Positions 53,851 through 64,000 are shown, numbered from the stretch's first letter. The stretch is DNA of 64,000 bases from an uncultured delta proteobacterium (GCA_963815115.1 CAWFFN010000005.1:1280001-1344000), one strand, 5' to 3'. Notes: generated from the letters alone by a model not told the origin. Numbers and translations: made by a program.

Positions 53851-55264
53851 TCACGGGTGCGGGCGGATCGCGCCCGCCTGGGGCCAGTGCCCGAGCGCGT
53901 CGTAGGCGGCATATTTGTAGAGCTCGGAGAGGGTCGGATAGTTGAACACCATGCCGATCAAGGTCTCGACGGTGCCCTGGAGCGTCATGACGGCCTGGCC
54001 GATGTGCACGAGCTCCGTCGCGCGCTCGCCGATGCAATGGCAGCCGATGAGCATGCGGCTGGCCGGGTCGAAGACGAGCTTGATCATCCCGTCGCGGTCG
54101 CCCACGATCTGCCCGCGGGCGTTCTGCTGGTAGAAGGCTTTCCCCACCACGGGCACGTAGCCGGCGTCCCGCGCCGCCGATTCGCCGTAGCCGACGCAGG
54201 ACACCTCGGGAATGGTATAGATGCCGTACGGCAGCAGCTCGCCCAGCTGCCGCTTGTAGGGGAAGGCGAAGGCGCGGCAGACGGCGACACGGCCCTGGTC
54301 CATCGAGGTGGAGGCGAGGGCGGGGAAGCCGATGCAGTCTCCCGCGGCGAAGATGTTCGGGACGCTCGTCCGGTAGCTGGCGTCCACTTCCACGTAGTCG
54401 CGCTTGCCGACCTTCACACCGATCGCATCGAGGCCGAGCCCGCGGATGTTGCCGGAACGTCCGGCGGCGAACAGGAGCTGGTCGGACACCACCTCGCCAC
54501 CGCCCTTGAGCGTGGTGACGATGCCGCGACCGGGGACGCGGCGCACCCCCGACCAGGCATCGCCGAGGTGGGCGGTGACGCCGAGCCCGCTCATCGCCTT
54601 GAGGAGTCCCACACCGATGTCGTCGTCGAGGAACGGCAGGATGTGATCGCGCGGCTCGACCAGCTGGACGGGCACGCCGAGGGCCGCGAACATCGTGGCG
54701 TACTCGCAGCCGATGACACCGGCACCGAGGACCGTCAGCGAGCGCGGCATGCGATCGAAGTGCAGCACCGTGTCCGAGTCCTCGATGTCGGGGTCGCTGA
54801 AGTCGATGTCCGCGGGACGGTGGGGCACGGAGCCCGTGGCGATGAGGACCACGTCACCGGTGATGCGCTCCGCGTCCGTCCGGACGGACGACTTCGATCA
54901 CATGGGGATCGAGGAAGCGCGCGCGGCCGGCGACCATGGTGACGCCGTGGCGATCGAGGTTCGCGCGGATGCGCGCCACCTCGGCCCGTCGTACGGCGTC
55001 CTTCCGGCTGAGCAGCCGCGGGGCGGCGAGCTCGGGCGTGATCGCCACGCTGATGCCGTAGAGCTCGCGCTGATGGTAGCCGGAGAGATACACGCTGGTC
55101 TCGCGCAGCGTCTTCGACGGCAGGGTGCCCGTGTGCACCGCTGCGCCTCCGGGCTCGGCCTCGCACTCGACGACGGCCACCTTCTTCCCGAAGTAGGCTG
55201 CCTGCGCGGCGCCCTTCTCGCCGGCGGGGCCGCTGCCGATGACGATCAAGTCGAAGGCGGCGAT
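53851..55264 (-). pseudogene. sthA: Soluble pyridine nucleotide transhydrogenase, frameshifted near 54875, apparent start ATC
   Basis: GSGPAGEKGA, HTGTLPSKTLRE; second frame IATGS, GAGVIGCEYA, GFPALASTSMDQGR, FNYPTL. Confidence 0.88.
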
Positions 55265-55275
55265 GGTCCCGTCTC

Positions 55276-56199
55276 CTAGAAGGAGTAGCGCAGCGCGACG
55301 ACGACGTGCGCGGCGAGCAGCACGAGCAGGGCCGCCGTGAGCGGAACGTGCAGGAACAGCCAGCCGTGGAGCCAGTGGTGCAGCCGGCGCTGCACGGCGA
55401 GATCGCGGCGCTCGGCCGCGATGTCGGCGAGATCGCGCGCCGCCTCGTGCAGCGATTTGGGAAGCTCGCGGCAGAGCCCTTCGATGGTGCGAGCCGCCAC
55501 CGCGGCGTCCGCGAACGGTCCGCGCCGGCCGTCGCCACGCAGGAACGGGCGCACCATCTCCACGTAGAACCGCCGCAGGGGCTCGGAGCCCTCGGCCGGT
55601 GCGTCGGCGGGTCGGTAGGCCGCGACACGGCGGGCCATCTTGGGATCGGAATGGATGCGCTCGCTCTCCTTCCTCTCCTCTGCCGCCTCGGGAATCGGGC
55701 CGCACACGGCCGCCGCCGTCTCGTAGGCTTCGAGACCGAGCAGGCCGACCACGTGGGGAATCTGCTCGTAGACCGTCTCGCCGGGAGCCCACGCGGACAT
55801 CAAGCGCGGCACGAACTGCTGCAGCGCGAGGCCGTACACGCCCGAGACGATGACGGCGAAGGCGAGGAGGGAGAGGGCGAGGGCGAGCGTGCCCTGGAAG
55901 CGGAAGGCGCTATGGAAGCACACCAGGGGAACGATGAGGAGCCCGAGCCACACGTGTCCCTTGAGCCAGGTCTCGGCGCGCCCGATTCGCCACGTGGGCA
56001 GGCGCTTGCGGACGTTGAGCCCGACCTCGAACAGCATGAGCGTGGCGGCGGCGATGCCGAACCACAGGCCCGGCCCGCGCGACCAGGTCAGCTCGCGTCC
56101 GGCGCCGGGGCGCGAGCGTACGTAGCCGACCGTCGCCGCCGTGCCCAGGACCGCTGCGGCGACGATCCAGCGCCGCTGGCGAGCGTCAATCAGTGCCAT
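55276..56199 (-). CDS. Membrane protein with four His, ferric-reductase/cytochrome b-like
   Basis: WLKGHVWLG, CFHSAF, SGVYG, WLFLHVPL, AAHVV in hydrophobic helices. Confidence 0.75.
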   Translation of the reverse strand: MALIDARQRRWIVAAAVLGTAATVGYVRSRPGAGRELTWSRGPGLWFGIAAATLMLFEVGLNVRKRLPTWRIGRAETWLKGHVWLGLLIVPLVCFHSAFRFQGTLALALSLLAFAVIVSGVYGLALQQFVPRLMSAWAPGETVYEQIPHVVGLLGLEAYETAAAVCGPIPEAAEERKESERIHSDPKMARRVAAYRPADAPAEGSEPLRRFYVEMVRPFLRGDGRRGPFADAAVAARTIEGLCRELPKSLHEAARDLADIAAERRDLAVQRRLHHWLHGWLFLHVPLTAALLVLLAAHVVVALRYSF

Positions 56200-58445
56200 G
56201 CTTACCTGCGACTCCGATGGTGGTGGCGAAGAACTCGCGAGGGTTCTCCACCCGCACCGCCGCGCCGTGGGGGCATGCCACCACGCAGCTCGGGTCCTGG
56301 TCCGGAGCGAGGTTCTTGCAGAGATCGCAGGCGGTTGCCTTCTTCTCGCGTGCCACGGCCTTGCGAGGTCCCGGGCGCTGGCGATCGTCGCCCTTCACAT
56401 CGAACTCGTGCATGCTGATGTTGCCATACGGGCAGTTGTCCGCGCACACGCCGCAGCCGACGCACCAGTTCTCGATGTATATCTCGAGCGTGTCTCGACG
56501 CCGGATCGATCCCACGGGGCATCCCACCATGCACAGCGGGTCGCGGCACTGTCGGCAGGACGTGGCGACGAGGTAGTTGTCGTAGCGCAGTCCCTCGCGG
56601 ATGAGCCGCGTCACGCCGTCGTGGGCCGTGGCACACGCTTGCACGCAGAGGTCGCAGCGCGTGCAGCGGTCGAGGTCGAGCACGAGGAGGCTCTGGGCCT
56701 CCATGAGCCCTTGCTGGAGAAAATCTTCGAGCTCGACGTTGCTGGTCGTGGCGGCGATCAGGCGGTTCTCCCCGGCGCGCCGCTCGGCCTCGGCGACGAG
56801 CCGGTCCTTCACCGCGGGGAGAGTGCTCGAGCATCGTCCAGAAGTCGTCGGCAGCGATGCGTACGACATCGACATGGTCGACGGCGATGCAGCTCGCGTT
56901 CCGCGGCTTGTCGAGCAGCAGGCCCATCTCCCCGAAGAAACCGCCGCGCCCGTGGTAGGCGCGTACCAGCTCGCCCCCGGGGAGTCCCACGACGACCTTC
57001 ACGAAGCCGAGGCGCACCAGGTAGAAGGCATCGGCCGGGTCGCCCTGCTTGAAGATGGCCTGGCCCGGCTCGAAGCTCTTCAGCGTGACGCGCTTGCCCA
57101 GGTCGTGGATGAAATCGGCGTCGAGGTCCGCCAGGCACCAGACTCCGCGCAGATGCGTCGCGATGGTGCGGTTGCGGTAGCGGGCGTCGACCTGCGCAGC
57201 GAAGGCCTTCGAGCGACGAAGCAGCTGGAGCACGGGACGCAGCATCTCCAGCACGACGGTGTCTTTCGTGGCCGTCACCGTGGCCGAGCGGGGGTAGAAG
57301 TTGAGGCACGTCATCTCTCCGAAGAGCTCACCGGGGGGGAGTCGGGCCACCGGCTCCGCACGCAACAAGTCTACGGGGGCGTCGATCGGAATCGTGGCGC
57401 CTGGGGCCTCGTCGTCATCCTCTCGGCCGAGCATGCTCCTCATCCCGAGCGCGAACCGCCGGAGCATCCCGGGGCCGGTGCGGTTGTGCACGCGGGACTG
57501 GGTCGTGGAGATGCTCACCTCGACCTCGCCCTCGAGGATGAAGAACGCGGTTGAGCCGAAGTCGCCCTCCTTGCAGATGGGCTCGTCGTCCCTGGGGCTC
57601 AGCCGTCGACGGACCACTGCGCCCTCGTTCTTGCCGATGGGACCGAGCGCCTTCTCGAGGAAGCGGGGGGCTATGCCCTCGAATAGCCGGGTGCCGTCGG
57701 GCCAGCGCAGGCCGAGCAGTACCTCCGCGCCGACCGGCTCGCCGGGGATCCTTGCGTCACCGAACCCCTTGTTCGTGAGCGCGCCGGTCGGGCAGGACAC
57801 CATGCACTCCCCGCACGACACGCAGGTCGACTCGCCCATGACCTGGCCCGCGTCGAACGTGATCACGGTGGCGTTGCCCTTGCCGGCGCGTCCGATGACG
57901 TTGTTGTGCGCGACGTCCGTGCACGCGCGCACGCAGCGGTCGCACACGATGCACGCCGCGTGGTCGACGGCGATGTTCGGGTGCGAGTCGTCGTGCGGCG
58001 TCCAGCCTGCGATCGGCGGCCGCTTGGGCGGTCCGGGGCGGTAGCGGTCGGGCAGGGCACCCAGCTCGCGCGCCTTCGCCTCGAGCTCGCAGTCGTTCGT
58101 CTCCCGCTCCCGGGCGCACGGGGAAGGATGATCGGCCATCAGCAGCTCGACGAGCGTGCGCCGGACCCTTTGCACCTCCTCGCTGCCGGTGGAGATCACC
58201 ATACCCGCCGACAGCTCGCGCGCGCAGGCTGCCGCCATGACGTTCTCGCGCGCGAGCTTGCCGTCGCGCGGAACGCGCACCTCGACGCAGCACACCCGGC
58301 AGACGCCGGCCGGCTGCTGCGGTGGCAGGTGGCATACCGTCGGGATCGTGATCCCGAGCGTCTGGGCGGCATCGAAGATCGTCGTGCCGGGGGGGACCTT
58401 CACCACCCGGCCGTCGATCGTCGCCTCGATGGGCTGGTCGCTCAC
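56186..58445 (-). pseudogene. Fusion: NuoG/FdhF-like Fe-S module + two cNMP-binding domains + 4x[4Fe-4S] ferredoxin; frameshift near 56818
   Basis: IPTVCH..GVCRVC..AAC; CIVCDRCVRAC; CVSCGECMVSCP; FGEM..PRSA, FGEM..PRNA; CTRCDLCVQAC, CRQCRDPLCMVGCP, CVGCGVCADNCP, CDLC..CVVACP. Confidence 0.85.
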
Positions 58446-60179
58446 GCCGCTCCTCCGGCGGCCGCCAGCGCCGGCCGCATCGGACACGTGCCCGCCGGGC
58501 AGCGGCTTTCCTGGAGGTGGGCGTTCACCTCGTCCTCGAAGTGCTGCATCATGGACGTGACCGGTGCCGGCACCACCTGACCGAGTCCGCAGATCGAGGT
58601 CTGACGGAGCGTCAGGGCGAGGTCGCCGACCACCGCGAGCCCCGCGGCTCCTGCGCGACCCTCGGTCACCGCTTCCAGCAGGTGGACGATCTTCTCCGAG
58701 CCCACGCGGCAGGGCCAGCACTTGCCGCACGACTCGCGCGCGAAGAAGCGCGCGATGTTGAGTGCGAGGTCGACCATGCAGCGGCCCTCCGCCACGGCGA
58801 CGATGGCGCACGATCCCACCATCGAGCCCTGCTTGGCGAGCGCGCCCCACTCCATGGGCGTATCGGCGAGGTGTGCCGGCAAGAAGCCCGACGAGGCCCC
58901 GGACGGCACCACGGCCTTGAGCTTGCGGCCGCCGCGCACCCCGCCGCCCCAGCGCTCGATGATCTCGCGCAGCGTGGTGCCGAAGGGCACCTCGTAGACC
59001 CCGGGCCGCTCGACGTCGCCGCTCAGCCCGACGAACTTGTAGCCTGCGGCGTCCGCCGTGCCGAGGGCGCGATACCAGCTGGCGCCGCGCAGCACGATCG
59101 ACGGCACGTGCGCCAGCGTCTCCACGTTGTTGACGACGGTCGGCATGTCGAAGAGGCCGTGGAAGACCGGGATGGAGGGCTTCAGCCGGGGCTGGCCTCG
59201 CTTCCCCTCGAGCGCCTCGAGCAGCGCCGTCTCCTCGCCGCAGATGTAGCCGCCGGGGCTGACGAAGATCTCGAGATCGAAGGCGAAGTCGGAGCCGAGC
59301 ATCCGCTGGCCGAGCGCACCCTCGGCCTGGGCGAGCTTGATGGCGCGGTGCAGCGCCTCGGCTTCCCGGGCATACTCGTGGCGGATGTAGATGATGCCCT
59401 GGCGCGCGCCGCTCACGACGCCGGCGATGGCCATGCCCTCGATCAGCAGATGCGGCGCCCAGGTGATGATGCCGCGGTCCTTGATGGTGGCGGGCTCGCT
59501 CTCGTCGGCATTGCAGACGATGTATTTCCGCGTCACCTGCTGGTCGCGGACCGTTCGCCACTTCCTCACGGCCAGAAAGCCGGCGCCTCCCATGCCCTTC
59601 AGCTGCGCCGTCTCGAGCTCGGCGAGCACCGCGTCGGCGCCGCTGTCGAGGACGCGGCGCAACGCGGCCCAGCGCTGGTGCTGCCCGTCGGCGTACGGGT
59701 CGGCGTGCTGGATCGCGACTGCGGGCGACGATGCGGCCTCCGGGAGCGCCTCGTTGTCGCGCAGGGCACGGATGAGCACGTCCATCCCACCGGCATCCAG
59801 GCGCCAGTAGGGTGCGTCGTTCACGGTGAGCGCGGGTGCGCCGTCGCACCGTCCGAGACAGGAGACGCGCTCGACGGTCACCTCGCCGGCTGGCCGCGCT
59901 CGCGCCGGCGGCCTCGACGTCGTGGAGGAGCGACTCCGCCCCGCGAAGACGGCACGAGAGATCGGTGCACACCCGGACGTCTCGTGTCGGCGGCGGCGCG
60001 AGGCGGAAGTGCGGGTAGAAGGTCGCGACGCCGTGCAGGCGGTAGATGGGGACGTCCAGCTCCGCGGCCAGGGCACGCAGCGTGGCGGGCGTCAGGTAAT
60101 CGCCGTTCCGGCGTTGCGCCTCCTCGAGCGCCTCCATCAGGTGCGCGTCGGTCAGGCGAGCGTCCGGAGCCTCTACCAT
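58442..60179 (-). pseudogene. NuoE+NuoF-like fused NAD(P)H diaphorase; frameshift near 59900
   Basis: VATFY, VCTDLSC, SCLGRC; GMGGAGF, NADESEP..KDR, YICGEETALL, ESCGKCWPCR..ICGLG. Confidence 0.88.
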
Positions 60180-60242: not shown

Positions 60243-61679
60243 CTAGTTGCCACGAGTGAGTCCCTGGATATCGAAACGTCCATTCATCTCGTCGGGCCCG
60301 ATCGCCGCGTGGTAGGTGTGGCACTCGGAGCAGGCCGTCCCCGCGCTGCCCGGGCGGTGGCATCGTGCGCAGATATCGCGGCCCGGCAGCAGGAGGTCCG
60401 CCGTGTCCCTGCTCTCCTTCGCGTTGGCGTGGCAGGCGAGGCACCCGAGCTGACGATGGACACCATGATCGAAACGGCTCTGGGGGAACCAGCGGATTGG
60501 GACTCGAGTCGGCGCCACGCTCGGGAGGCCCGAGTCGGGGGCGGCGATCATGGTATGGCATTGCTTGCAGTAGCAGGACTCGCTGAAGAGCACGCGCTCG
60601 GCGGTCGCGACTCGCTCGGCGATCCAGGCGTCTCGGTCCGGCGCACTGCGCGCGGTCGCTCCGCCTGGGAACGGCCGCGGCCTGGGCGTGCCGCGAAGTT
60701 CGCCGGGATGTCGGGCGATGTAGTCGGCGTAGAGGCCCTTCAGGAAGGTGTGGACCACGGCAGGCGTATCGTGGGGGACGACGATGCTGGGGGGAAAGCG
60801 ATCGTCGGCGAACGTATTCGGGTGACACGCGGCACAGTGCTGGGCGTAGCGCACGGGCGCCATGTAGGGAGTGGTCTCGGCCGGAGCGAGCTCGGGTTTG
60901 ACCGGCGGTGCCCACCCCGCGGGCAGCTTGCCGAAGAGCGGAGTCGCCATGGACGTCGTCCCCCAGTGGCAGTTTCCGCAAACGAGCTGCACCCGGAAGT
61001 TGTTCTCGGGCCCGACGAAGTTGGCGGTGAGGTGGGTGGCGTGGTTCAGCTTGAGCTGCGCCATGTCGCGGGGCGCTGGCACGTCATCGAGTGCTTCGCG
61101 GTGCGGGTGCTCGGGGTCTCCCGTCCACACGGCGAACTCGGGGTGCAACGCGTTGTCCCGGGTCGCGAAAGCATGGATCTTCTGCGCGTCCCCTCGCAGC
61201 ACGAAGGCCGGCGGGCCCTTGGTGTGCTGCGGCAGGTCGGCGTGGCAATCGGTGCACGCAGCCGTCGAGACGGCGGAGAGGTTCGGGGCGGCGCGATGCT
61301 CGGTGTGGCAGGTCGCACACGGCGGCGTGGAGTCCTGGTTCGGGTGGTGAACCGGCACGTCGTGGCACGTCTGGCACGCCGCGTCGGTGGCACGCCGGAA
61401 ATGCGGCGGCTCGGCGTCGGTGGCGGTCCCGTGTGCGAGGTCGCGAGCCGCGATGTGGCACGCGGCGCAGTCCTCCTCGTACATCGCGTGCGCTCTCGCG
61501 AGACGGCCCGGAGACGCAGGGTGGGCACGTCCGCCGAGCATCGGTGCGATCCAGAGCGCGGCGGCGGCGAGTGCAGCGAGCGTCAGCCACACCCGCAGGC
61601 TGCGAAACCAGTGCCGGCGCAGGTAGTAGTCTCGCTCGATGCGCTGGGCGCGAAGCTTCGCTTTGCGCTGGCGGGCCAT
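60243..61679 (-). CDS. Membrane-anchored decaheme cytochrome c
   Basis: Ten CxxCH motifs counted; N-terminal basic stretch plus hydrophobic helix; SPGRLARAH, FDHGVH. Confidence 0.9.
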   Translation of the reverse strand: MARQRKAKLRAQRIERDYYLRRHWFRSLRVWLTLAALAAAALWIAPMLGGRAHPASPGRLARAHAMYEEDCAACHIAARDLAHGTATDAEPPHFRRATDAACQTCHDVPVHHPNQDSTPPCATCHTEHRAAPNLSAVSTAACTDCHADLPQHTKGPPAFVLRGDAQKIHAFATRDNALHPEFAVWTGDPEHPHREALDDVPAPRDMAQLKLNHATHLTANFVGPENNFRVQLVCGNCHWGTTSMATPLFGKLPAGWAPPVKPELAPAETTPYMAPVRYAQHCAACHPNTFADDRFPPSIVVPHDTPAVVHTFLKGLYADYIARHPGELRGTPRPRPFPGGATARSAPDRDAWIAERVATAERVLFSESCYCKQCHTMIAAPDSGLPSVAPTRVPIRWFPQSRFDHGVHRQLGCLACHANAKESRDTADLLLPGRDICARCHRPGSAGTACSECHTYHAAIGPDEMNGRFDIQGLTRGN

Positions 61680-61688
61680 GCCGGCTTC

Positions 61689-63442
61689 TCAGCGGGTCGT
61701 CGGGCGGCGGGGAAACTTGACGAAGGGAAGGCGCACGTTCCGGACCTTCACGCGATCGGAGCGCATGTCCGCGGGCGGCCGGAATCCGCGGCCGGCGGCG
61801 AAGGAGATGATGTCGTCCTGATCGACGCCGTCGCCGCTCACCCCGGCACCCCCGATGAGCCTCCGACCTCGGTAGAGGGGTACGCTGCCGGGGAAGATCT
61901 GGATGCCATTGCCGATGCCGGGGATGGTGCTGCACGGCGATACGATCAGTCCCACCGTCAGGAGCATGACAAGGGCGCCCGAACACGAGGTCGATCTGCA
62001 GCCCGTCATTGAAAATGCTGAAGTCGCCGATGGGCACCGAGAAGGGACCGTGGAAGGTCCCGTCGATTCCGTCCGGGAAGAACGGACGGCTGAGGAATCC
62101 GCCTGCCCGGTCGCTGAAGGCGACGCTGCCGTCGAGGTCGATGCCCTCGCGACGCGCCGCTTCAACGAATTGGTCGAGATTGATTGAGGAGTCGGACGCT
62201 GCTGCGCAGTCGAGCACCCGCCTGCGAGCTGCTGAAGAACGCCGCCGTACGGCCCTTCTGCGCTGAGACGTCGAACCCGAACGTCGGGGCGTCCTGCGTG
62301 CGGAAGATGCCGAGTATGTTTCCGGCTCGGTCGACGATCGTGATGTTGACGCGCGCCCGGTCGCCCAGGGGCCGGCGGATGCCGGCTCGCGTGCGGTTCG
62401 CCTGGTGGGCGCCTTGCTTCAGCAAGCGCTGCACCTGCGCGGCCGTGAGCCCCGGCCCGGGCGGCGGATCGATGCTGTCGCGGGGTGGGTAGTAGCGCGG
62501 GTCGACGGTCCCCTTCACGCCACCCAGGGTAGCCGGAACGAATCGGCTTGGCGGCGTATCGATCGGAGCGACGTCCCCCGGACCGAAGGTGACCGTGGCC
62601 GCGGGAACGATCGGTGTCTCATCGAGATTCGAGAACGGGAAGCGGAGGCCGTTCACCAGGATCTGGTCGCCGCGGATGAAGGCCGGTGCCTCGTACCCGC
62701 GCGTCGCCGCCACCGCGATGCGTTCCTCGTCGGTCACCTCGAGATCGGTCGGGTTGCGATCCACCGTGTAGCGCCCGTTCCCCTCCACCCCGACACCACC
62801 GGCGGCTCGCCCATTCTTGTACAGCGGGAGGCCGCCCGGGTCGGCCGAGAGGCCGAGCGGCAGCGTTCCAGCCGGCAGTGGCAGCAGCGGCGGAGGTAGC
62901 GTGACCCCGGGCCGCGGGATGACATCGCCGCACGGCAGCTGGGAGAACTGCACGCCGAAGAGCGGGCCGCTCGACGTGTTCCGGATCAGGGGCGGAAAAT
63001 GTTGCTGGATGATGAAGCCGGCCGTCCGAGTCGTGAACGCGTTGCCCTGGGTGCTGAAGAAAGCTGCCGTGCCCCCCTTCGAGAGCGCCGCCAGCATGGC
63101 GAAGTTGACCTGGCACACCGGTGGCCCGGGCGGCGGTATGTCCGGAAAGCATGGGGGTTGAGGGGGCAGGGTCGTTCCGTCGAGCCCCTGTGGGTTCTTG
63201 GCGCCACCGTCGATCCTGATGGACTGATCCGCCCCGTCCATCACGTGCGTCCCCAGCACGTTCCCCTCGCGGTCGAGCACCGCGATGTTGACGGGTAGTC
63301 CGACGCGCTGCGCCTCGCTCACCGCCTGGCCGATGACGCGCGTGACGTCCGCGGCCGTCAGCGTCTGAGACGCCGCGGGCGCGGTCAGCGCCACGGCACC
63401 GGCCAAGCACGCGCCGGTCAGCGTCGGCAGCCGAGCCCGCAC
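61689..63442 (-). pseudogene. Secreted tandem GlcG/HbpS-like heme-binding protein, frameshifts near 62185 and 61978
   Basis: IAVLDREGNVLG, ADPGGLPLYKNG..GGVGV; ITIVDRAGNILG, VSAQKGRTA; FPGSVPLY..GGAGVSGDGVDQDD spread over three frames. Confidence 0.82.
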
Positions 63443-63526
63443 GCGGGCTTGCTTAGCGAATGTGGACCGAACACGCAAGATTTGGTATGCGCGCCCGACA
63501 TTCACGACGAATCTGGAGACCCAGGT

Positions 63527-64000
63527 ACGAAGCTCGTCCACGCACTGGCGCTGGCCTTCGTCGCACTCGCGCTCGCCGCTCCGGTGTGGGCGGAGCCGCA
63601 GGACGCAGGCAATGCCACGCCGCGGCGCCGCCCCCTGCCTTCGCCGCCCGAGCCTCCCCCCGCCGTCGAGCCGGGGCCGCCCGTGGAGAACACCGAGGAG
63701 CCGACCGGCTACACCGGTCCGCCGGCGCCGCCGGAGACGTTCCCGGCGGAGGAAGAGGTGGACTCCCGGAACCGCTGGCGCGTGGGCTTGCCCTTCTACA
63801 ATCGCCAGCCCGACAACATCCACGAGGCGCCGCTGGTCCGCGGGCAGTGGTGGGATCCGTACGACCAGAACGTGCTGAAGGGCGACTACCCGGTCTTCGG
63901 CACCCAGAACACCTTCTTCGCCTTCACCCTGCGCAGCGACACGCTGCTCGAAGGCCGGCGCCTGCCGACGCCGAGCGACGTCAGCTCGGCCCGGCCCGGG
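63527..64000 (+). CDS. Exported, probably outer-membrane protein (3' end outside window; apparent start ACG, alternative TTG 63482)
   Basis: Open frame KLVHALALAFVALALAAPVWA (signal peptide), Pro-rich linker, NRWR..WWDPYDQNVLKGDYP..EGRRLPTP. Confidence 0.7.

Follow-up and report, generated by a model that had tools for sequence, protein, structure and literature searches.

Gene clusters that join a cyclic nucleotide monophosphate (cNMP)-binding protein carrying 4Fe-4S clusters to a membrane protein and a multihaem cytochrome have been described twice, and are the closest known counterparts of the locus analysed here, a minus-strand gene at 56186..58445 of a 64,000-nucleotide (nt) stretch of DNA from an uncultured delta proteobacterium (GCA_963815115.1 CAWFFN010000005.1:1280001-1344000). 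This whole stretch is called the window, positions are counted from its first letter, and the gene is referred to as the Fe-S/cNMP gene after its iron-sulfur (Fe-S) clusters and cNMP-binding domains. In the accessible portion of a preprint on the ptdABCDEFG cluster (bioRxiv 10.1101/2023.11.21.568154), PtdE is presented as a cNMP-binding domain protein with 4Fe-4S clusters, PtdF as a ferric-reductase-like membrane protein and PtdG as a ten-haem cytochrome; the function of the cluster, according to the same portion, 'remains completely unknown'. The sections available of He et al. (2017, PMC5566968) place a corresponding Fe-S gene, its function stated to be unknown, in the PCC4 clusters, and define the PCC3/PCC4 inner-membrane protein by two WX3HX13H motifs and SGXXG, interpreted there as a pair of b-haem sites.

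Likened by these published descriptions, the window protein shares with PtdE and its PCC4 counterpart the union of cNMP-binding domains and 4Fe-4S clusters in one polypeptide (in the window split over two frames), the adjacent membrane protein has the two WX3HX13H motifs and the SGXXG of PtdF and the PCC4 inner-membrane protein, and a ten-haem cytochrome c like PtdG (ten CXXCH motifs, 61679..60243) likewise belongs to the cluster. The window protein differs from PtdE in an extra HoxU/NuoG-like N-terminal module ([2Fe-2S] and 2x[4Fe-4S]), and in its four ferredoxin-type clusters, where the accessible portion of the preprint mentions two. The cluster as a whole differs from ptd in its gene order, in the attached gene for a soluble NAD(P) transhydrogenase (SthA; NAD(P), nicotinamide adenine dinucleotide (phosphate)), in having no penta- or tetra-haem genes in the operon, and in a NuoE-NuoF fusion that would feed the window protein and stands where the flavin adenine dinucleotide (FAD)/NAD(P) oxidoreductase PtdC would be. 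A PtdA-D-type porin, penta- and tetra-haem cytochromes and FAD/NAD(P) oxidoreductase were all absent from the operon; nearby lie an open reading frame (ORF) of 627 amino acids (aa) with a lead to outer-membrane barrels and a gene for an LVIVD protein with nine CXXCH motifs. An uncharacterised core of cNMP/4Fe-4S protein, membrane protein and ten-haem cytochrome is already in print, and the element that appears to be new is the NuoEF-fed form with a HoxU-like N-terminus. No functional study or description of that form was found in the full-text literature, a search outside which subscription journals and preprint supplements lay, and neither PCC3 or PCC4 nor the term cyclic nucleotide occurs in a 2026 review of iron oxidation.

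The domain content, the conserved fusion, the gene order and the ligand residues of this system are observed. At a probability of roughly 55%, we read the gene as encoding the cytoplasmic Fe-S connector of a membrane-bound NADH:multihaem-cytochrome oxidoreductase that is possibly tuned by cNMP, the window copy carrying an insertion that probably stems from assembly error. The electron path, its direction and its gating are those we infer as follows. The NuoE-NuoF fusion, with flavin mononucleotide (FMN), would oxidise NADH; electrons would enter the HoxU/NuoG-like N-terminal clusters of the Fe-S/cNMP protein and move along a chain of seven, possibly eight, clusters that ends in the four-cluster ferredoxin at its C-terminus; the ferredoxin would dock on the cytoplasmic face of the downstream membrane protein, whose two putative bis-His b-haems would take the electrons across the membrane; and the membrane-anchored ten-haem cytochrome c would receive them and deliver them to outer redox proteins. 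Reducing power from NADPH would enter as NADH through the presumably co-transcribed SthA, and the tandem cNMP domains, joined by a helix to the ferredoxin, would tune electron transfer or the assembly of the complex. The parts of the gene are given below (residues numbered from the start codon).

56817..58445, minus strand: Fe-S/cNMP gene, frame A, codons 1-543, with [2Fe-2S], degenerate His site, 2x[4Fe-4S] and two cNMP domains (Pfam, homologues)
58182..58436, minus strand: [2Fe-2S] domain, Fer4_2-type Fer2_4, residues 4-88, with Cys 38, 49, 52 and 74 (Pfam E 1.2e-14; Cys in 114-116 of 116 homologues)
58086..58130, minus strand: degenerate His-ligated cluster site with H106, C110, E113 (for Cys) and C119 (FdsA alignment, column counts, Pfam)
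57774..57980, minus strand: 2x[4Fe-4S] ferredoxin-like domain with Cys 165/168/171/175 and 208/211/214/218 (Pfam Fer4_Nqo3, Fer4_7; conserved in 116/116)
57240..57728, minus strand: cNMP-binding domain 1, residues about 240-402, with a low-confidence insertion of about 55 residues and the cassette G376-E377...R386-S387-A388 (Pfam, conservation, model)
56823..57119, minus strand: cNMP-binding domain 2, residues about 443-541, with the cassette G505-E506...R515-N516-A517 (Pfam best stretch 456-541, conservation)
56816..56819, minus strand: CCCC run, one base too many, with a +1 frame switch between codon 543 and the ferredoxin (sequence; GC content at third codon positions, GC3; homologues; the frame detector flags 56821)
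56186..56815, minus strand: Fe-S/cNMP gene, frame B, 209 codons and stop, with linker helix and four-cluster ferredoxin of 16 Cys in four groups (Pfam, Cys conservation, 84% identity to the best homologue, P0002)

An N-terminus composed of [2Fe-2S], a degenerate His/Cys site and 2x[4Fe-4S] had been recognised in the initial annotation, and this is borne out by Pfam, by the alignment with FdsA and by the conserved columns, counted here and below over 116 full-length homologues. The four Cys of a NuoG/HoxU/HydA/FdsA-type [2Fe-2S] cluster and two C-x2-C-x2-C-x3-C groups are present, the latter in a Fer4_Nqo3 match of 29.7 bits (residues 156-224). The His-ligated [4Fe-4S] motif H-x3-C-x2-C-x5-C is incomplete: E113 aligns with the second Cys of this motif in FdsA (9wxb_B), a position replaced in 116/116 homologues (Q in 108, H in 5, E in 3), and the site otherwise keeps His, Cys and Cys, three of its four ligands; the corresponding Pfam family, NADH-G_4Fe-4S_3 (residues 95-129), scores 19.2 bits, below its cut-off of 27. 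Structure was assessed on an AlphaFold2 model of P0002, made from 118 alignment rows (predicted local distance difference test, pLDDT, 75.6; predicted template modelling score, pTM, 0.73). Its first ~230 residues match FdsA and bifurcating-hydrogenase HydA structures in Foldseek (root-mean-square deviation 2.8-4.5 A), and the N-terminal 230 aa also match by sequence (E 2e-35). No NCBIfam model reaches its cut-off for the protein, the best partial matches, all to the N-terminal Fe-S part, being HoxU (130.7 bits against 333, profile positions 5-215 of 238), NuoG (106.6 against 470) and FeFe hydrogenase A6 (168.5 against 765). The order of [2Fe-2S] and 2x[4Fe-4S] is that of HoxU (in HoxEFU) and of the N-termini of NuoG, FdsA and HydA, and the window gene, like theirs, adjoins NuoE/NuoF; unlike these proteins, it stays below the family cut-offs, has the three-ligand His site and continues with two cNMP domains and a four-cluster ferredoxin in place of a molybdopterin or H-cluster domain. 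Pfam found no catalytic or molybdopterin-like domain at the C-terminus of the Fe-S/cNMP product. The view that the cNMP domains stand where a catalytic domain is expected is half apt: such a domain is missing, and relatives without the N-terminal Fe-S module exist, so that the conserved core is formed by the cNMP domains and the ferredoxin, and the HoxU/NuoG-like module looks like an added input on the NADH side.

Both of the cNMP-binding domains that had been reported with FGE...R-x-A cassettes are present in the window and strongly conserved. The Pfam family cNMP_binding (PF00027) scores 123.3 bits against a cut-off of 27.5, in three stretches. The G-E...R-S-A cassette of domain 1 is kept in 116/116 homologues; that of domain 2 keeps G, E and R in 116/116 and Ala in 114/116, and the residue after its Arg, N in the window, is T in 89, V in 9, N in 6 and S in 4. 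In CAP and protein kinase A (PKA), the cassette Gly-Glu...Arg-[Ser/Thr]-Ala contacts ribose and phosphate of the ligand. The tandem domains of the P0002 model match regulatory subunits of PKA and protein kinase G (PKG) in Foldseek (E 6e-17 and weaker), and a long helix (residues 544-568) links domain 2 directly to the ferredoxin; the frame switch in the window falls exactly at the start of this helix. The arrangement is that of the cyclic nucleotide-binding domains CNB-A and CNB-B of the PKA regulatory subunit (PKA-R) and PKG, and of CRP, with two consecutive beta-barrels, intact phosphate-binding cassettes and output via a C-terminal helix. It differs from them in its output module, an Fe-S ferredoxin and not a kinase-inhibitor segment or DNA-binding domain, and in a sequence identity to the PKA-R and PKG structures of only 17-22%.

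The tandem domains most likely bind cyclic AMP (cAMP) or cyclic GMP (cGMP), and in this way would adjust how electrons are transferred or how the complex is assembled. Four features fit allosteric control by either nucleotide: cassette conservation, the PKA-like tandem, the helix that connects it with the ferredoxin, and the occurrence of a relative bearing an FHA domain (in genome G038). More specifically, and only as a tentative proposal, ligand binding might couple or uncouple the NADH-side and membrane-side Fe-S chains within one polypeptide, a second-messenger-gated respiratory valve that would open or close a non-energy-conserving outlet to multihaem cytochromes in seconds and with no need for transcription. 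Were this true, the FHA-bearing relative of G038 and the relative of G085, which lacks the NADH module, would represent this valve connected to different signals or donors. The Gly-Glu...Arg-[Ser/Thr]-Ala cassette is retained in the short form of G085. The variant in G038, a genome of the same class (L086 1486-3612, minus strand), has no HoxU-like module, an FHA domain inserted in the second cNMP cassette, and has lost the cassette Glu in both domains; membrane protein and multihaem cytochrome still follow it.

The genome to which the window belongs encodes 33 class III cyclase domains (20 of which served to build the cyclase profile). Outside the window, at L112 7216-9973 (~69216-71973 in window coordinates), lie genes for a CHASE2-domain class III cyclase of 738 aa and a cNMP-binding protein of 251 aa. 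This cyclase is ~11 kb from the Fe-S/cNMP gene, and its orthologue (42% identity over 731 aa) is 1-3 kb from the short form in G085. Another cyclase is found beside the ten-haem cytochrome gene in G023. Within the window's class, a cyclase lies within ~12 kb in three of the four loci with context.

The last 209 residues belong, by Pfam, to the 4Fe-4S dicluster families. The DmsB/NrfC-like four-cluster ferredoxin of the initial annotation is sustained in its four Cys groups, 16/16 of whose Cys are present in the window, and qualified in that it lies in a separate frame of the assembly and scores below the cut-offs of both families tested (Pfam Fer4_11, 24.3 bits against 26.2; NCBIfam DmsB, 44.7 against 214.1 for P0002). 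With DmsB, NrfC and HybA it shares these four groups, including C-x2-C-x4-C-x3-CP, and a position suited to feeding a membrane subunit; it differs from them in being cytoplasmic, fused to sensor domains and without a molybdoenzyme partner. The window retains each of the 28 Cys that make up the seven complete clusters. The 116 homologues likewise conserve the ligand Cys of the [2Fe-2S], of both N-terminal [4Fe-4S] clusters and of the ferredoxin's four clusters; only the second Cys of group IV departs from this, being Ser in 23/116.

The fusion of these parts is a property of the family. Among 8000 scored candidates, 4622 protein clusters match with E<=0.001, and of the 120 best homologues 117 are single proteins of 684-758 aa with the same domain set; separate genes for the parts, the outcome that the initial annotation had named as its refutation, are not what these homologues show. 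The database names in use are 'cyclic nucleotide-binding domain-containing protein' and 'CRP-like cAMP-binding protein/Fe-S-cluster-containing dehydrogenase component', and a further homologue, P0007, is 67% identical to the first 543 aa of the window protein. A search for shorter homologues gave 1061 matches, mostly on contigs of 1-2 kb; natural split forms were rejected after six of the six read on long contigs, out of 120 listed, turned out to be broken calls, starting inside a domain or containing out-of-frame stretches. At least 560 loci encode a relative among species-representative genomes, and 71 of the best 80 have acidobacterial labels. Common in Acidobacteriota, the family is rare in the window's own class, with the full-length form in 4 of 301 sampled genomes (the window's own included) and a shorter form without the N-terminal Fe-S module in two more of the 301. 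The full-length gene occurs in 3 of 24 same-family genomes, in three as one frame. Because only these three, and none of four same-genus genomes, were found to carry it, the full-length gene is accessory in this lineage and possibly a transferred island.

The gene had been annotated as one span, 56186..58445, which the sequence does not bear out as a single ORF: these 2260 nt are no multiple of 3, and an extra C displaces the last 209 codons from the frame of the first 543. Frame A opens with GTG at 58445 (minus strand), overlapping the TGA stop codon of the upstream NuoF as GTGA. Past codon 543, it continues stop-free for 205 further codons to 56202, as a non-homologous read-through rich in Arg, Pro and Gly, and the four-cluster ferredoxin lies in the +1 frame relative to it (56815..56186). 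In the GC3 frame plot the coding phase changes at the CCCC run. At the same junction the homologue P0003 reads ...SSPAVRERL... in one frame, and the window ...EHSP (frame A) followed by AVKDRL... (frame B); deletion of one C gives a product of 752 aa, the same length as P0002. Codons 1-543 have 76% identity to P0002 in the homologue search, and a separate comparison of the two halves gives 78% for the frame A half and 84% for the frame B half. GC3 bias is 0.83-0.98 in plot segments wholly within either half, and no in-frame stops, deletions or loss of codon bias occur in any piece. A programmed +1 frameshift at CCC-C was ruled out, as all orthologues read through in a single frame; so were two natural genes, since frame A stays stop-free for the 205 codons mentioned and no purine-rich ribosome site was seen by eye before the in-frame GTG at 56812. 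One base is missing at window position 56784, 32 nt downstream of the extra C, in a soil-metagenome contig of depth 2 (X2); the difference could stem from a relative, from an error or from a compensating mutation.

The genes next to the Fe-S/cNMP gene are the following.

58442..60179, minus strand: NuoE-NuoF fusion (FMN/NADH module), in two frames, shifted near 59885-59895 (Pfam Complex1_51K 2.3e-41; NADH_4Fe-4S, 2Fe-2S_thioredx)
55276..56199, minus strand: inner-membrane protein of 307 aa with five predicted helices (motifs; AlphaFold2 pLDDT 85.7)
60243..61679, minus strand: membrane-anchored cytochrome c with ten CXXCH motifs (CXXCH count; Pfam Cytochrome_C7, Paired_CXXCH_1)
53851..55290, minus strand: SthA, directly after the membrane-protein gene, frame-shifted at ~54870, 5' end approximate (homology)

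The NuoE-NuoF fusion scores 442.8 bits on NCBIfam nuoF_fam, below the cut-off of 558.65. The start of the membrane-protein gene overlaps the end of the Fe-S/cNMP gene by 14 nt, and its product has W78-x3-H82-x13-H96, S119-G-x-x-G123 and W280-x3-H284-x13-H298, invariant in 44/44 aligned sequences. By the positive-inside rule, its helical insert of 130 residues would face the cytoplasm, where the ferredoxin could dock. The proposed scheme follows that of the NOX/FRE ferric-reductase-domain proteins and MsrQ, transmembrane di-haem exporters that take electrons from cytoplasmic NAD(P)H or flavin and lead them over two stacked bis-His b-haems to an acceptor on the far side of the membrane; the window system differs from these in the five helices of its membrane protein, a Ferric_reduct match below threshold and no clear match to a solved fold, and in a dehydrogenase part that is a multi-subunit Fe-S chain and not a fused FAD domain. 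The order NuoE-NuoF, Fe-S/cNMP gene, membrane protein of ~300 aa, ten-haem cytochrome is found across 80 named loci (NuoF in 77/80, membrane protein in 80/80, cytochrome in 77/80), with all misses at locus ends. The window and G023 share the order ten-haem cytochrome, NuoE-NuoF, Fe-S/cNMP gene, membrane protein, SthA; the cytochrome gene lies upstream in these two, and downstream in 77 of the 80 named loci. SthA adjoins the membrane-protein gene in these two genomes and is not part of the acidobacterial version of the cluster; the intact SthA of G023 scores 539 bits on NF003585 (cut-off 465).

The extra C is probably an assembly error and not a genuine inactivation. The break is so read because the window's 12-contig assembly (G000) has about 3.5 times the frame-switch rate of short-read relatives: a frame detector based on a simple codon-position method, run on three of its large contigs, found 194 in-gene candidates in 3.95 Mb (4.9 per 100 kb), against 5 candidates in 360 kb (1.4 per 100 kb) for five many-contig (short-read) relatives. 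The candidates are clumped, with 68 neighbour pairs less than 5 kb apart against 42.2 +/- 5.1 at random (68 was reached in 0 of 2000 simulations), and a few-contig assembly from the same genus has 4 candidates in 40 kb. In two genomes of the same family (G020 and G023), the NuoE-NuoF and Fe-S/cNMP genes are each in one frame, as is SthA in G023; SthA had no match in G020. It is rather unlikely that the window copy is a real pseudogene, in an island of SthA, Fe-S/cNMP, NuoEF and HbpS-like genes decaying by single-base insertions, an explanation that would concern this copy and not the function of the family. The pieces, free of stops and deletions and with their codon bias intact, are still 78-84% identical to P0002, the assembly-wide rate and clumping and the few-contig relative argue for error, and broken calls of the Fe-S/cNMP family recur on long contigs elsewhere in the database. 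Decay of a dispensable island nevertheless keeps some weight because the local density of breaks is high and the gene is missing from same-genus genomes. Several results count against our reading, and some of them bear on this point. Five single-base frame switches within 7.4 kb (~54870, 56816-56819, ~59890, ~61980 and ~62215; those besides the CCCC run are in SthA, in the NuoE part of NuoE-NuoF and, for the last two, in the HbpS-like gene) far exceed the genome mean of 4.9 detected per 100 kb. The full-length gene is missing from all four same-genus genomes (G001-G004, 89-100% complete), which together with its presence in only 3/24 same-family genomes marks it as dispensable. Four soil or sediment metagenome runs gave exact pieces of 151-336 nt, none of those listed spanning 56816-56819 or ~59890. 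The others concern the proposed complex: confidence in the ferredoxin part of the model is low (pLDDT 43-74), the membrane protein scores 16.5 bits on Pfam Ferric_reduct (cut-off 28), no solved fold above generic helical hairpins was found for it (Foldseek, none at E<=0.001; VIA-align, Z<=9.8), a cyclase neighbour as a general rule had to be rejected (within ~6 kb in only 2/83 loci), and in G020 no cyclase lies within 15-20 kb of the cluster.

The scarcity of linked cyclases also counts in favour of an unlikely alternative to cyclic-nucleotide control, in which the cNMP-like domains are a spacer, a dimerisation scaffold or binders of another ligand, and no second messenger gates electron flow. 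Binding of other ligands by the CRP/FNR fold is well documented (CooA, NtcA, CprK), domain 1 has its low-confidence insertion of ~55 residues, and the G038 variant has lost both cassette Glu and taken up an FHA domain in domain 2. The cassette, present in 116/116 in domain 1, near-invariant in domain 2 and kept in the short form of G085, speaks against it, as do the best structural matches, which are true cNMP binders, and the richness of the genome in cyclases. The direction of flow can be questioned as well. For the PCC4 clusters of iron oxidisers, the sections available of He et al. (2017, PMC5566968) propose inward flow, towards the quinone pool, and a reversed complex would here reduce NAD+ with electrons drawn from the periplasm or from outside the cell, for instance from Fe(II), by way of the cytochromes and the membrane protein. 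In favour of this, NuoEF and HoxEFU modules can in principle run both ways, and SthA could pass NADH on to NADPH for biosynthesis. We consider this improbable: reduction of NAD+ from donors at the level of cytochrome c would be strongly uphill, inward electrons would oppose the membrane potential, and the cluster showed neither a proton-pumping nor a bifurcating module. The outward path of the proposed NADH:multihaem-cytochrome oxidoreductase would be the favourable direction and would conserve no energy, a reason for tight control; regulation makes sense because such an outlet would spend NADH and move negative charge outward without conserving energy.

Direct action of cyclic nucleotides on an Fe-S electron path, as proposed here, would, if true, be a hitherto undescribed mode of respiratory control; the cNMP control of respiration known so far acts via transcription factors, CRP among them. 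The family abounds in soil bacteria and stands at the entry of an apparent NADH-fed route to periplasmic and outer multihaem cytochromes; with this abundance and position, it could bear on how uncultured Acidobacteriota and their relatives dispose of reducing power or reduce metals and humics. The window copy itself is of lower value, the gene being rare in its class and broken in the assembly.

Beyond the cytochrome gene, 61689-63823 (minus strand) encodes a secreted-looking protein with repeated HbpS-like (haem-degrading/GlcG) domains, situated between that gene and the 627-aa ORF. In G085 and G141 an HbpS-like gene immediately precedes the gene for the short cNMP-ferredoxin form, and G020 and G023 have one close to the cluster. 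The 627-aa ORF (63449-64000, plus strand, continuing to ~65332) has no Pfam family; an Atlas lead points to outer-membrane barrels of the alginate-export type (score 0.96). It is followed by a gene for a protein of 1295 aa with nine CXXCH motifs and LVIVD repeats (65332-69219, in L112). The two genes also accompany the cluster in G020, G023 and G085, and 18 of 83 other loci have the LVIVD protein.

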